Origin: a virus
Lineage: Duplodnaviria > Caudoviricetes
Reading direction: 5' to 3' (one strand)
Virus record (IMG/VR): IMGVR_UViG_3300029798_000001
Length of the DNA stretch: 64,000 nt
Below the pieces are notes generated by a model. It saw nothing but the letters and a program-made list of their open reading frames with translations. It ran no database searches and was not told the DNA's origin. Below are positions 21,911 to 33,810 of this stretch, piece after piece (position 1 is the stretch's first letter; every line of letters starts with the position of its first letter). Position numbers and translations under genes: made by a program.

Positions 21911-21982
21911 AATCTGTTATAAATATATTATGTAGATGCCCAATTAGGGTCTACTTTATTACTTGCTTATTTTTAAGGAGAA
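21911..21982 (+). promoter_or_regulatory. Late promoter TATAAATA, conserved hairpin and RBS (copy 1 of hsp20-type leader; no ORF follows)
   Basis: Matches 24057-24132 in AATCTGTTATAAATA, GATGCC..GGGTC and ACTTGCTTATTT..AAGGAGAA. Confidence 0.75.
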
Positions 21983-22056
21983 TTTATATATCAACGCAAC
22001 CCTTTCTGGCCCAGTGTCAACCCCTTACAATTTAAACATTTAACTATCAATAGTTA

Positions 22057-22085
22057 TTGACACTTATTCCTATTTGTGTTATAAT
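22057..22085 (+). promoter_or_regulatory. Sigma70 consensus promoter for groES-groEL
   Basis: TTGACA-N17-TATAAT (perfect consensus), followed by AAGGAG. Confidence 0.85.
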
Positions 22086-22127
22086 CTATTATTGTGGTAA
22101 TATCATTTACATTTAAAAGGAGTCAAA

Positions 22128-22415
22128 ATGAATTTAAAACCTATTCACGATCGTATTGTTATTCGATTAGTAGAAGCGGAAACTCAAACTAAATCTGGAA
22201 TCTTTATTCCAGATGCCGCAGTAGAAAAACCTAGCCAAGGTGACGTTGTTGCCGCAGGCCCTGGTCGCACTACAGAAGATGGACAACTAGTTCCAAACGC
22301 AGTAAACATAGGCGACCGTGTGTTGTTTGGCAAGCATGCCGCAACACCAATTAAAGTTGACGGCGAAGAACTTCACATCCTCCGTGAGGACGATGTAATG
22401 GCAATTGTAGAATAA
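22128..22415 (+). CDS. groES: Co-chaperonin GroES
   Basis: LKPIHDRIVI, TKSGIFIP, GDVVAAGPG, GDRVLFGK, ILREDDVMAIV. Confidence 0.97.
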   Translation: MNLKPIHDRIVIRLVEAETQTKSGIFIPDAAVEKPSQGDVVAAGPGRTTEDGQLVPNAVNIGDRVLFGKHAATPIKVDGEELHILREDDVMAIVE

Positions 22416-22424
22416 GGAAAAATT

Positions 22425-24044
22425 ATGACAGCAAAACAAGTAGTATTCGGCGATGTAGGTCGCAACAAATTAGTCGAAGGCGTTAATGTATTAGCAAACG
22501 CAGTTAAAGTTACACTAGGACCAAAAGGTCGTAATGTAGTAATTGAGCGATCATTCGGCGGCCCGATTGTAACCAAAGACGGTGTATCCGTAGCCAAAGA
22601 AATTGAACTCGAAGATAGGCTCGCTAACATGGGCGCACAGATGGTTAAAGAAGTAGCAAGCCGCACAGCAGATAATGCCGGTGATGGTACAACTACCGCC
22701 ACAGTCTTGGCGCAGTCAATTGTTAAAGAAGGCATGAAGTATGTAGTTGCCGGTCATAACCCAATGGACTTGAAGCGTGGTATTGATCAAGCTGTTACTG
22801 CCGCGGTAGCAGAACTAACTCGTATCTCAAAGCCATGTACCACTACTAAAGAGATTGCACAAGTTGGTTCTATCTCTGCTAACTCAGATGCTAGCATTGG
22901 CAACATTATTGCTGAAGCTATGGAAAAAGTGGGTAAAGAAGGCGTTATCACTGTAGAAGATGGTAAAGGTCTTGAGAATGAACTTGATGTAGTTGAAGGT
23001 ATGCAGTTTGATCGTGGTTACCTAAGCCCATACTTTATTAACAACGCAGACAAACAGGTATCAATTCTCGATAATCCTTTTGTTTTATTAGTTGATAAAA
23101 AGATTAGTAACATTCGCGATCTCATTCCAGTATTGGAAGCAGTAGCCAAGTCTAGTAAACCATTGTTAATTATTTCCGAGGATGTTGAGGGCGAAGCACT
23201 TGCAACGTTGGTAGTAAACAATATGCGTGGTATCATCAAGACTTGCGCTGTTAAAGCTCCTGGGTTTGGTGACCGTCGTAAAGCTATGTTAGAAGATATT
23301 GCTATCCTAACTGGCGGTACTGTTATTGCTGAAGAAACAGGATTAACACTTGAAAAGGCCGGCATTGAGCAGTTAGGCACGGCCGGTCGTGTCGAAATCG
23401 GCAAAGAAAACACCATCATCATTGACGGTGCTGGTGACAAGACAGCAATTGAAAACCGTGTTAAATCAATTCGTACGCAGGTTAAAGAAGCTACAAGTGA
23501 ATACGACAAAGAGAAGTTGCAAGAGCGTGTGGCTAAACTTGCCGGCGGTGTTGCTGTTATCCGTGTCGGCGCCGCAACTGAAACAGAAATGAAAGAGAAG
23601 AAGGATCGCATTGATGATGCACTCCACGCTACTCGTGCCGCTGTTGAAGATGGCATTGTCGCTGGTGGTGGTGTAGCATTAATCCGTGCTAAACAAGCCA
23701 TTACTAACTTGCAAGGGTTAAATGCCGATCAAAATGCTGGTATCGGCATTGTTCTTCGTGCATTAGAAGAACCAGCTCGTTGTATCGCGTTTAATGCAGG
23801 CGACTCTGCAGATGTAATCATTAATGAAATTGCTAGCAAGACTGGTAATTATGGTTACAATGCTGCAACTAGTACCTATGGTGATATGGTAGAACAAGGT
23901 GTCATTGATCCTACTAAAGTTACTAAGACAGCATTAATCAATGCCGCTAGTATTGCTGGTTTGATTTTGACTACAGATTGTTCTATTGCACAAATTCCGC
24001 AAAAAGAATCTGCATCTCAACCTCAAATGGGCGGCATGATGTAA
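22425..24044 (+). CDS. groEL: Chaperonin GroEL
   Basis: [48 protein letters not shown]-terminal GGMM. Confidence 0.98.
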
Positions 24045-24056
24045 TTTGACAGATTT

Positions 24057-24137
24057 AATCTGTTATAAATAGTACTGTGGATGCCGATGGTCGGGTCCAC
24101 AGTATTATGTCACTTGCTTATTTAAAAGGAGAAAACA
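24057..24137 (+). promoter_or_regulatory. Late promoter TATAAATA, conserved hairpin leader and RBS of hsp20 (copy 2)
   Basis: TACTGTGGA-TG-CCGA-TGG-TCGG-G-TCCACAGTA hairpin, then AAGGAG. Confidence 0.8.
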
Positions 24138-24584
24138 ATGACAAGACTCACAACTCTGGACCTCAGTCCATTCTATCGTAATTCAATTGGTATCGATCAT
24201 TTATTTGATCGTATGATTCATCAAATTGATACCGCGGCCGCATCAACAACTAACTATCCACCTTACAACATTGTAAAAACTGGCGAAAACACCTACGAAA
24301 TTCAAGTAGCTGTTGCTGGCTTCACTCAGGGCGAAGTTACAGTTAATGTTAATGAAGGCCAATTAATCATCACTGGCGAAAAAGGTGATACCGATCTACC
24401 CGAAGGACATGTATATGAGCACCAAGGAATTAGTTCCCGTCGTTTTATACGCACATTTACTTTAGCTGATTATGTTGAAGTAGTTACTGCTACTAGTCAA
24501 GATGGTATTCTTACTGTTAGTTTAGAGCGGCAGATTCCTGACGCGATGAAGCCAAAGACCGTTGCTATTACCTACAAAAAATAG
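24138..24584 (+). CDS. hsp20: Small heat shock protein (Hsp20/IbpA family)
   Basis: YPPYNIVK, VAVAGF, HQGISSRRFIRTFTLAD, DGILTVSLER.IPDAMKP. Confidence 0.95.
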   Translation: MTRLTTLDLSPFYRNSIGIDHLFDRMIHQIDTAAASTTNYPPYNIVKTGENTYEIQVAVAGFTQGEVTVNVNEGQLIITGEKGDTDLPEGHVYEHQGISSRRFIRTFTLADYVEVVTATSQDGILTVSLERQIPDAMKPKTVAITYKK

Positions 24585-32258: not shown

Positions 32259-32560
32259 TGGATTTTATTTTTGAAACAGCCGGCAATGCTTGGTTGTATA
32301 TTAAGAAGGACTATACAGAAAATCGCATTCGATTTTTTGTCGAGTTGTTTAGCTGGGCATGTAGTGTAGTAAGTGCTGTAATCTTTGCGGCCACCGTGCC
32401 TACCGTACCGGTAATTCCGCTTTATACTATTTTTATTAGTGGGTGCTGTGCAGCCGCATGGACCTGCTGGACCCGTGGTAGTTTTGGATTGTTGGCCAAC
32501 TATGTCTTTTTAATTACTATAGACTGCATTGGCCTTATCCGGATGATGCTAAATCATTAA
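32258..32560 (+). CDS. Small 3-TM membrane protein
   Basis: Three hydrophobic segments; TAATG coupling. Confidence 0.6.
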   Translation: MDFIFETAGNAWLYIKKDYTENRIRFFVELFSWACSVVSAVIFAATVPTVPVIPLYTIFISGCCAAAWTCWTRGSFGLLANYVFLITIDCIGLIRMMLNH

Positions 32561-32748
32561 TCTGGCTTTGGGCCTCGTGGCTTACGGGCAGTTTTAGCCT
32601 TAACGGCTGGTTTCTTTTCTGCCTTGGGTTTAGCAGTAGTGGCCTTGGGAACTACTACCTTTTTAACTGCCGGTGCTTCAACTTTGTACGGTGCAGGTGT
32701 TACTTCTGGTTCTGCCGCCCCAAAAATCTTCTTTAAAAATGATAGCAT
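32557..32748 (-). CDS. Lys/Ala/Pro-rich histone-like small protein
   Basis: AGGAG RBS; TAAATA on the minus strand at 32768-32773; KPKAEKKPAVKAKTARKPR. Confidence 0.65.
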   Translation of the reverse strand: MLSFLKKIFGAAEPEVTPAPYKVEAPAVKKVVVPKATTAKPKAEKKPAVKAKTARKPRGPKPD

Positions 32749-32875
32749 GATAAATCTCCTTGTATAATATTTAGTGTTTTTGCTTGTCATTAAACTTTAA
32801 TATTAATGTGGCAATGCAATGATAAATATCATGGTAAACACTTAGATGGTTATATCACAAAAGGAGACACCAAAA

Positions 32876-33016
32876 ATGTCAAAATTATTACAACAATTTA
32901 CCAAATTGTTTTCAGCCCAGCAATCTAGACTAGAAGCATTTATGAACGCCAAAGCACCAAAATCACATGCTGATGCAGAATATTGGCAAAAGTATTTTGA
33001 ATACAGGGGTATGTAA
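32876..33016 (+). CDS. Small protein, DUF3563-like
   Basis: Not in the ORF track (46 aa); ATAAATA at 32822-32828, AAGGAG RBS; RLEAFMNAKAPKSHADAEYWQK. Confidence 0.6.
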   Translation: MSKLLQQFTKLFSAQQSRLEAFMNAKAPKSHADAEYWQKYFEYRGM

Positions 33017-33017
33017 C

Positions 33018-33107
33018 ATGTGCCGATATCTTAAAATATTCTGGGAAGCATTTTGCGAAGCTCGTATCGAAGCTGCCAAGGCTCGAGTGCATTACCATAG
33101 CTATTAA
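33018..33107 (+). CDS. 29-aa peptide
   Basis: TAACATG junctions on both sides; MCRYLKIFWEAFCEARIEAAKARVHYHSY. Confidence 0.5.
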   Translation: MCRYLKIFWEAFCEARIEAAKARVHYHSY

Positions 33108-33108
33108 C

Positions 33109-33666
33109 ATGCTAGCCACACGCTTTTTGCCCATCCAAGATTTTGCTCTCTACGGAAATTGGCTCCGCGAGCAATCTAGCGATACGCTGGCCACCTATTT
33201 TGGTGTTGCTACTGGCCCTGCGTTTATTGATAATTTAATAGAACGCATACTCAGCAATCCCAAAGAACACCATTTTTTAGTGGCTACATATGGTACTCAG
33301 TGGGTAGGAGTTATTCATATGGCCCGAATATCCAAACAAGATATGGAGTTTGGTATCATGGTAGCAGAAGACTCTCGTCATCAAGGTATCGCAGATCAGT
33401 TGCTAGATGAAGCAATTAATTGGATACGCAATCGCGGGTTTAATACACTGTATCTACACTGTTTAAACCGCAACTCTGCTATGAAACACTTAGCTACAAA
33501 GCACGGATTAGAAGTACACGAAGATCACGGCGATGCAGAAGTGGTTACTCGTGTACCACCCCCGAGTGTGCTTACCTATGCTCAAGAAGCATTTACAGCC
33601 AATAAAAATATTTTCTTTATGAATCTACAGCATGCATGGCGCCCGTTTGGCGAAATGCTTGGCTGA
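33109..33666 (+). CDS. GNAT family N-acetyltransferase
   Basis: EFGIMVAEDSRHQGIADQLL (Q/RxxGxA), CLNRNSAMKHLATKHG. Confidence 0.88.
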   Translation: MLATRFLPIQDFALYGNWLREQSSDTLATYFGVATGPAFIDNLIERILSNPKEHHFLVATYGTQWVGVIHMARISKQDMEFGIMVAEDSRHQGIADQLLDEAINWIRNRGFNTLYLHCLNRNSAMKHLATKHGLEVHEDHGDAEVVTRVPPPSVLTYAQEAFTANKNIFFMNLQHAWRPFGEMLG

Positions 33667-33710
33667 TATGGTCAATTTTGCCAAAATCCATTATATTAAT
33701 ATATTTTATG

Positions 33711-33810
33711 TTGCATCGCAAGGTAAATAAGTGTACAATAGAAACATGTTCACTGCAGGTGCCGATAGTCGGGCCTGTAAAGCATAAATTGTCCAAAAAG
33801 GAGATTTACC
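33711..33810 (+). promoter_or_regulatory. Dual promoter (TTGCAT-N17-TACAAT with TAAATA in the spacer) plus copy 3 of the conserved hairpin leader
   Basis: -35 at 33711-33716, TAAATA at 33724-33729, -10 at 33734-33739, hairpin at 33754-33779, AAGGAG RBS. Confidence 0.7.

Follow-up and report, generated by a model that had tools for sequence, protein, structure and literature searches.

We report a structured RNA element that occurs in three copies on the + strand of IMG/VR virus record IMGVR_UViG_3300029798_000001, a 64,000-nucleotide stretch of Caudoviricetes phage DNA that was analysed at its full length and is referred to here as the window. The copies contain hairpins at positions 21932-21954 (copy 1), 24073-24104 (copy 2) and 33754-33779 (copy 3), and each copy is probably a short two-hairpin ROSE-like RNA thermometer in an mRNA 5′ leader. 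Elements of this class are well known from textbooks as regulators of small heat-shock genes in bacteria. A preliminary description of this DNA had noticed the three hairpins, which correspond to the first hairpin of the element (hairpin I), and had taken them for a new, unnamed motif that would bind a protein or ligand. The structural class is already known, so the claim of a new motif fails. What appears to be new is the presence of the element in phages, behind promoters other than those of sigma32, with a paired start codon and with a spread to further genes. In the literature searched, we found no paper describing ROSE-like thermometers in phages.

Covariation and the match to ROSE_3

The letters of the three hairpins are exactly those given in the preliminary description. 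Hairpin I of copy 1 forms GUAGAU-[G]-CC...GG-GUCUAC, with the bulged nucleotide in brackets, and that of copy 3 forms GCAGGU-[G]-CCGA UAG UCGG-GCCUGU. Copy 2 has 11 outer pairs, the U.G pair, the bulged G, the stem CCGA/UCGG and a UGG loop; the fold of its whole leader has a z-score of -4.4. The outer stems vary and yet stay paired (GUAGA/UCUAC, GUGGA/UCCAC and GCAGG/CCUGU), around a core common to all three copies, in which a U.G pair is followed by a bulged G and C-G pairs. All three also have the reported TAAATA upstream and AAGGAG downstream, with the TAAATA of copy 3 located 24 nt ahead of hairpin I. A role of hairpin I as a transcription terminator was considered and rejected, as no T-run follows the hairpin and a terminator scan did not flag it.

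For a wider comparison, the Hsp20 protein encoded downstream of copy 2 was used as a query and yielded 69 phage loci in IMG/VR, 68 of which include upstream sequence. The same leader layout is visible by eye upstream of hsp20 in these loci. A covariance model, R1, was built from 15 hsp20 leaders, with copies 1 and 3 left out, and applied to every position of the window on both strands. It returned three significant sites only: copy 2 with 80 bits (E 4e-19), copy 1 with 34 bits (9e-7) and copy 3 with 33.4 bits (1e-6). The best R1 match outside the copies has an E-value of 0.07. A second model, R2, built from the R1 matches in the hsp20 loci, likewise yields exactly three matches in the window, among them copy 1 at 21925-21989 (50.9 bits) and copy 3 with 42.1 bits. 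A weak model match at 57322-57404 (13.7 bits, E 0.26) lacks the second hairpin (hairpin II) and was dismissed.

R2 was then used to align 75 distinct leaders, a set that takes in cultured phages and two bacterial ibpA leaders. Across its 17 pairs, 96.9% of cells are paired, compared with 48-63% in controls with slid partners, and the observed values were reached in 0 of 500 shuffles. Changes on both sides of a pair occur in 15 of the 17 pairs, including all 11 of hairpin I. Together with the R1 scan, these results confirm that the mRNA leaders contain a structured RNA element that covaries, as reported. In 60 of 60 distinct leaders, the bulged G is invariant in hairpin I and also in hairpin II. 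A correction concerns the proposed invariance of CC/GG beside the UG/G loop, as the second core C-G pair is replaced by U-A in 12 of the 75 leaders.

The identity of the element emerged from a permissive Rfam scan. Rfam ROSE_3 (RF02523) is a 69-nt model with two hairpins and a gathering threshold of 43 bits. It matches copy 1 at 21930-21995 (35.5 bits, E 5.6e-6), a span that contains hairpin I, copy 2 at 24075-24143 (35.2 bits, E 3.1e-6) and, weakly, copy 3 (18.5 bits, E 0.063). Model positions 1-69 of 69 are aligned in all three copies, and the posterior probabilities are high for copies 1 and 2, whose two helices and two bulges align in register. The hairpin I consensus of ROSE_3, GGAU-G-CCG...CGG-GUCC, is the motif of the preliminary description, so that the unnamed protein- or ligand-binding motif proposed there turns out to be a full-length match to ROSE_3, below the gathering score. 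The leader of the cultured phage Melnitz scores 34.1 bits on the same model. The ROSE_2 and rhizobial ROSE (RF00435) models gave no match to the window copies at E-values up to 10.

Hairpin I is never found alone, and every significant match includes hairpin II, which masks the Shine-Dalgarno (SD) sequence. The preliminary description had overlooked hairpin II, the probable functional part, in which the SD is masked by U(U/C)GCU. All three copies show this pairing, with its unpaired G. CUUGCUU of copies 1 and 2 faces the SD AAGGAG through C-G, U-A and U.G pairs, an unpaired G, and C-G, U-A and U-A pairs. Hairpin II of copy 1 spans 21962-21980, with the anti-SD at 21962-21968, the SD at 21975-21980 and the G either opposite a G or bulged. 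In copy 2 it spans 24108-24143, with CUUGCUU at 24113-24119 and AAGGAG at 24126-24131 around the bulged G; an additional helix, UGUCA at 24108-24112 with UGACA at 24139-24143, extends across the AUG at 24138. In copy 3 (33785-33808), UAAAUU-[G]-UCC pairs with GGA-GAUUUA, leaving one bulged G and masking the SD AGGAG at 33799-33803. The U(U/C)GCU alternation is seen at the third pair of hairpin II, where 62 of the 75 leaders have U.G and the other 13 have C-G. The other pairs of hairpin II scarcely vary, as expected of a helix that contains the SD.

The helix over the start codon is widespread. A helix of at least 4 bp between the segment 5′ of the anti-SD and the start-codon region is present in 43 of 46 distinct hsp20 leaders, and it covaries. 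Its mean length is 5.26 bp, compared with 3.79 ± 0.13 bp after shuffling, and its sequence follows the second codon, as in UGUCA/AUGACA, AGUCAU/AUGACU, CAUAG/CUAUG and UUUUUAAAU/GUUUAAAGA. In the predicted pairing, the phage version of the element masks both the SD and the AUG.

A variant of the anti-SD was also observed. The hsp20 leaders of loci L001, L003, L004 and L016 (approximately 2975-2990 of each locus) carry CUUCGUUU in place of CUUGCUUA, a GC-to-CG swap. The unpaired G is thereby displaced by one position, while complementarity to AAAGGAG is still full; the role of the bulge position could be tested on this natural variant.

Genes and promoters downstream and upstream of the copies

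The window, which belongs to a large freshwater phage, encodes NrdAB, DNA ligase, a ClpX-like ATPase, GroES, GroEL, Hsp20 and ClpS. Near-identical DNA is present in lake metagenomes, and no RNA run was found to contain the locus. Copy 2 extends to the AUG of hsp20 (24138-24584; Pfam HSP20 1e-16; PHROG 432), whose product can be aligned with Salmonella IbpA and IbpB. The window Hsp20 is of the IbpA type and keeps the equivalents of Escherichia coli IbpA residues Y34, R93 and R97, with K98 replaced by T. Four phage Hsp20 homologues likewise keep the equivalents of Y34, R93 and R97, unlike IbpB.

In the IMG/VR loci, R1 detects the element before hsp20 in 66 of 68 cases. In more distant phages the same leader stands before dnaK (loci L022 and L043) and directly before groES (loci L058 and L064). 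Two relatives, one a complete genome of 344 kb and the other a record of 317 kb (CheckV 89% complete), carry exactly three copies each, in the same three contexts as the window. All nine cultured phages tested have the element before hsp20, namely Melnitz, which infects Methylophilales (58.3 bits), the cyanophages S-B64 (44.9 bits), Syn1 (38.9 bits), S-RIM4 (35.9 bits) and S-RIM12 (31.5 bits), phage C48C1, the Pelagibacter phages HTVC115P and HTVC008M, and the Sinorhizobium jumbo phage Phosso. Whole-genome scans of five cultured phages (141-469 kb) gave one match each, always at hsp20. Nothing is annotated at the element in the GenBank records of the cultured phages. The preliminary description had mentioned GGAUGCC..GGGUCC leaders before hsp20 in T4-like phages, and this is borne out by the leader of cyanophage Syn1, which reads GGAUGCCUUCGGGGUCC. 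The hsp20 gene is a core gene of T4-like cyanophages (PMC3037559).

The element is linked to validated bacterial thermometers. Used on controls, the phage-built model matches the Salmonella ibpA (19.8 bits) and ibpB (16.8 bits) leaders, of which the former has a score of 94.9 bits with Rfam ROSE_2. Among 151 sampled Gammaproteobacteria, two have a match, both in ibpA leaders behind sigma32-like promoters. The element is absent from the closest bacterial Hsp20 homologues that could be reached (41-46% identical).

The promoter-like sequences of the phage leaders, from which their 5′ UTR status is judged, are of a different kind. Copy 1 is preceded by TATAAATA at 21918-21925, with TTAACA 17 nt upstream of its TATAAA, and relatives have TTGACA-17-TGTTATAAATA at this site. 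Copy 2 is preceded by TATAAATA at 24064-24071, with TGT before it. A few nucleotides ahead of hairpin I, (T)ATAAATA is found in 54 of the 75 leaders and TAAATA in 62 of 75. The (T)ATAAATA sequence fits the consensus of T4-type late promoters, and this holds in true T4-like phages (Kyanoviridae). In T4-type late promoters, TATAAATA stands some 6 nt ahead of the transcript start, is recognised by a gp55-type sigma factor and is enriched upstream of late genes. It is plausible, judging from these motifs, that late promoters stand before these leaders. Three findings speak against late promoters: TATAAATA is not enriched in the window, with four occurrences versus 7.1 expected; a -35 sequence TTGACA lies 16-18 nt upstream in 26 of 75 leaders; and one leader lineage uses TTGACT-17-TATAAT. 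The bacterial sigma32 promoter has clearly been replaced in the phage elements. Three perfect TTGACA-N17-TATAAT sequences are present at 22057, 50134 and 58500 of the window, versus 0.1 expected by chance, and it is clear that sigma70-type promoters of the host are used by the phage.

Copy 3 ends at the AUG of a gene for an 83-residue protein (33811-34062), which is predicted to be helical with low confidence (AlphaFold mean pLDDT 58.7). Nine homologous phage loci of this gene carry the element, which the model finds at E < 1e-3 in seven, and most of these leaders have the canonical anti-SD CUCGCUU. More distant versions of the leader occur in two further records. The protein has 838 sequence homologues, all unnamed, and searches gave no confident Pfam match, no PHROG match and, in the Atlas, phage hypothetical clusters only. 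The designation "phasin-like" in the preliminary description is not supported, as the window protein has no Pfam match and Phasin_2 is found in only two of 11 homologues, at an E-value of 0.0036. The suggestion that a few stress-related genes have the leader in common is upheld, as relatives carry it before hsp20, groES, dnaK and the 83-residue protein gene.

A palindromic TTGC-N3/4-GCAA box (for example ATGTTGCATCGCAA and ATGTGGCAATGCAA) was observed directly before the (T)ATAAATA of the copy 3 leader, at 33708-33721. It is present in the window and all relatives (L070-L078), and a second such box at 32806-32828 stands before another ATAAATA at 32822. The box resembles a candidate operator for a DNA-binding regulator.

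The genes groES (22128-22415; Pfam Cpn10 7e-31) and groEL (22425-24044; Cpn60_TCP1 9e-75) lie downstream of copy 1. Copy 1 had been described as the leader of groES, which it is not. The SD of copy 1 has no following start codon, groES begins 139 nt past the model match (147 nt after the SD), and groES has its own SD and its own sigma70-type promoter, a perfect TTGACA-17-TATAAT at 22057-22085 that separates it from copy 1. An eight-codon mini-ORF, MSK(H/Q)x(Y/F)(L/V)T-stop, comes after copy 1 in nine sister phages. The window retains a remnant of it at 21988-22014, in which the ATG has become ATA (21988-21990) and the TAG stop has become CAG. The ATA form is borne out by contigs of three metagenome studies, and strains with ATG (A>G at 21990) occur alongside it. 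The lake strains were seen to differ at 21990, 21995, 22009 and 22012 (ATA/ATG, C/A, G/A and CAG/TAG), that is, exactly at the start, an internal site and the stop of the mini-ORF, which indicates that its loss is a recent strain-level event.

Copy 1 is nonetheless conserved. Its mean pairwise identity among 10 relatives is 0.83 for hairpin I, 0.91 for hairpin II with the SD and 0.86 for the mini-ORF, compared with neutral proxies of 0.67 (groES third codon positions) and 0.69 (spacer). By this measure of sequence identity, the orphan copy 1 is under constraint. Immediately downstream (21988-22030 of the window; L001:839-880, L008:844-885 and sister loci), the blocks GUCAAAGCA and CUGACCUAGCGUCA, conserved in sister phages, show an identity of 0.86 versus 0.67 for the neutral proxy. 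Codon changes in the mini-ORF are not mainly synonymous, and the constraint looks nucleotide-level. Parts of the two blocks are complementary to hairpin I strands (GAUGC/GCGUC and GGUC/GACC) and to the anti-SD (UUGCU/AAGCA). Such complementarity suggests a possible alternative-pairing or leader-peptide switch ahead of groESL. Long-range folding of this region from relatives gave structures no more stable than those of shuffled sequences (z ~0). We also considered copy 1 as a relic of a dnaK or hsp20 5′ end, with the MSK of the mini-ORF resembling DnaK, and rejected this because alignments of the downstream sequence to both 5′ coding regions were at shuffle level.

Two further observations concern the surroundings of the copies. 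Copies 1 and 2 lie in a cluster of proteostasis and redox genes at 15757-24953, which comprises a peroxiredoxin-like gene (15757-16293), a ClpX-like gene with a zinc finger (19486-20685), groES, groEL, hsp20 and clpS (24603-24953). Between copies 2 and 3 are genes for a UvdE-type UV damage endonuclease and a GNAT acetyltransferase (30991-32037 and 33109-33666).

Proposed mechanism and alternative explanations

We propose that, in the cold, the weak, A-U-rich hairpin II would block access of the ribosome to the SD, and that warming, or another way of opening hairpin II, would permit translation. In copy 2, the additional UGUCA/UGACA helix would cover the AUG as well. Hairpin I, stable and G-C-rich, would stand right after (T)ATAAATA, at the 5′ end of the transcript or close to it. 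By analogy with Pseudomonas ibpA, it would not melt, and it would either aid the folding of hairpin II or shield the 5′ end of the mRNA. Of the two hairpins in the Pseudomonas elements, only hairpin II melts with heat, and it suffices for thermoregulation by itself (PMC3669281). Under this mechanism, copy 2 would control the IbpA-type hsp20, copy 3 the conserved 83-residue protein and copy 1, in sister phages, the mini-ORF ahead of groES-groEL.

Several points weigh against a thermometer. At its gathering thresholds (43 bits for ROSE_3), Rfam gives no match in the window or in 20 relatives. The pair counts come from model-fitted alignments, which are biased towards structure; plain MAFFT alignments of the leaders give the same compensatory changes. 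Hairpin II alone has a folding energy of only -2.4 to -3.9 kcal/mol, with z near -1. In partition-function folding, the computed accessibility of the SD is nearly flat from 5 to 42 °C, and copy 2 took another register. Because the energy model does not capture the geometry of the G bulge or of the G-G opposition, we treated folding at different temperatures as uninformative. The phage hairpin II also has U-A and U-A pairs in place of the loop-proximal G-C clamp, which is required for repression in P. putida. In the strain represented by the window, copy 1 has no ORF to regulate. Finally, we infer the temperature response, the melting, the transcript starts and the role of hairpin I from the analogy with characterised elements.

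A different possibility, which we hold to be unlikely yet worth serious attention, is that the leaders are mainly operators for feedback by the phage Hsp20. Oligomers of Hsp20 would block translation, and late virion proteins that aggregate would titrate Hsp20 and free the three mRNAs. Temperature would then be secondary, and such feedback is compatible with a thermometer. The IbpA proteins of E. coli, Cedecea and Vibrio bind their own ibpA thermometer leader and repress their own translation (PMC10474464; bioRxiv 10.1101/2020.04.20.050740). This self-repression depends on an irreplaceable R93, an aromatic residue at Y34 and positive charge at R97 and K98, and the upstream stem-loops matter (PMC10474464). 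The retention of the Y34, R93 and R97 equivalents in the phage Hsp20 and its four homologues, which distinguishes them from IbpB, fits this precedent, but R93 is widespread in alpha- and gammaproteobacterial small heat-shock proteins and discriminates little (PMC10474464), and K98 is T in the phage protein. Feedback by Hsp20 could also explain why the bulged G of hairpin I, in its U.G/C-G context, is conserved beyond the need of a mere stabilising stem, and why three leaders of one genome have one design. Against this, the cultured phages have a single copy, at hsp20 itself, and a multi-gene regulon is specific to the lineage of the window. By analogy with E. coli IbpA, a protein-binding layer on top of the thermometer is possible. 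One further conjecture, to which we assign a comparably low likelihood, is that the leader, copied onto hsp20, the gene for the 83-residue helical protein and the mini-ORF ahead of groESL, constitutes a phage proteostasis regulon in which Hsp20 binding, titrated by aggregates, would read the folding load of virion assembly besides or instead of temperature.

The element might, on the other hand, sense nothing. Hairpin I would then be a stabiliser against RNase E and hairpin II a fixed damper, both inherited passively with a captured bacterial ibpA. Stem-loops at the 5′ end do stabilise E. coli mRNAs, and this role has been proposed for the Pseudomonas hairpin I (PMC3669281); the weakness of hairpin II and the almost flat computed accessibility of the SD would agree with it. 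However, within phage genomes the leader has also come to stand before unrelated genes (dnaK, groES and the 83-residue protein gene), and ROSE details are kept in very divergent phages, including the bulged G (60 of 60), the U(U/C)GCU alternation and the covarying start-codon helix. The orphan copy, furthermore, retains an identity of 0.83-0.91 versus a neutral proxy of 0.67. The ROSE-specific details, the conservation of the orphan and the spread to other genes all argue against passive inheritance, which we consider improbable. Even less credence attaches to the original idea of a motif unrelated to known families, whose invariant UG/G loop would bind a ligand or a dedicated protein. It drew on the nearly invariant internal loop and the covarying stems, but the same hairpin and bulge form hairpin I of the ROSE_3 consensus, aligned in register, and the SD-masking hairpin II accompanies them in all significant matches. 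A ROSE-like thermometer thus remains the explanation that we favour.

Significance and relation to known systems

If the leaders work as they do in bacteria, the chaperone output of these phages depends on temperature or folding stress, which bears on how infections by marine and freshwater phages would respond to warming. Three features also bear on the purpose of the upstream hairpins of ROSE elements, namely the occurrence in three copies, the conservation of the orphan and its mini-ORF, and an invariant bulged G within a hairpin I that would not melt. Cultured systems exist in which these questions can be addressed, such as Melnitz on OM43-clade Methylophilales, and Syn1 or the S-RIM phages on Synechococcus.

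Temperature-responsive leaders have precedents in phages. That of lambda cIII is a switch between alternative structures, controls a lysogeny gene and belongs to an unrelated class. The blyA leader of SPbeta (PMC10586365) is likewise a temperature-responsive leader of a phage or prophage, but it is of the fourU class, which is unrelated too, precedes a lysis gene and, like that of cIII, is a single case. Among bacterial elements, the enterobacterial ibpA/ibpB thermometers (ROSE_2, RF01832) and the rhizobial ROSE (RF00435) likewise pair the SD with U(U/C)GCU around a bulged G in their thermosensing hairpin; they differ in having three to four hairpins, compared with two in the phage copies. The self-repression of IbpA (Miwa and Taguchi; Cheng et al. 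2023, PMC10474464) offers a parallel in that an IbpA-type gene stands behind a thermometer leader and the counterparts of Y34, R93 and R97 are retained. In contrast to that system, K98 is not conserved in the phage protein, and the leader design is also found on two other transcription units.

The closest counterpart of the phage element is the short ROSE-like thermometer of Pseudomonas ibpA (ROSE_3; Krajewski et al. 2013, PMC3669281). Both have two hairpins within a leader of ~60-65 nt, a G-C-rich hairpin I with the U.G pair, the bulged G and the C-G pairs, the U(U/C)GCU-SD pairing and an IbpA-type small heat-shock gene downstream. The phage element differs in standing behind (T)ATAAATA and/or TTGACA-type promoters rather than a sigma32 promoter, and it scores 35 bits where the ROSE_3 gathering threshold is 43. 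Its hairpin II is A-U-rich, without the loop-side G-C clamp. The start codon is paired in most phage hsp20 leaders, but in Pseudomonas the prediction is that the AUG stays unpaired (PMC3669281). In addition to its place before hsp20, the phage element is found before dnaK, groES, the mini-ORF and the gene for the 83-residue protein.

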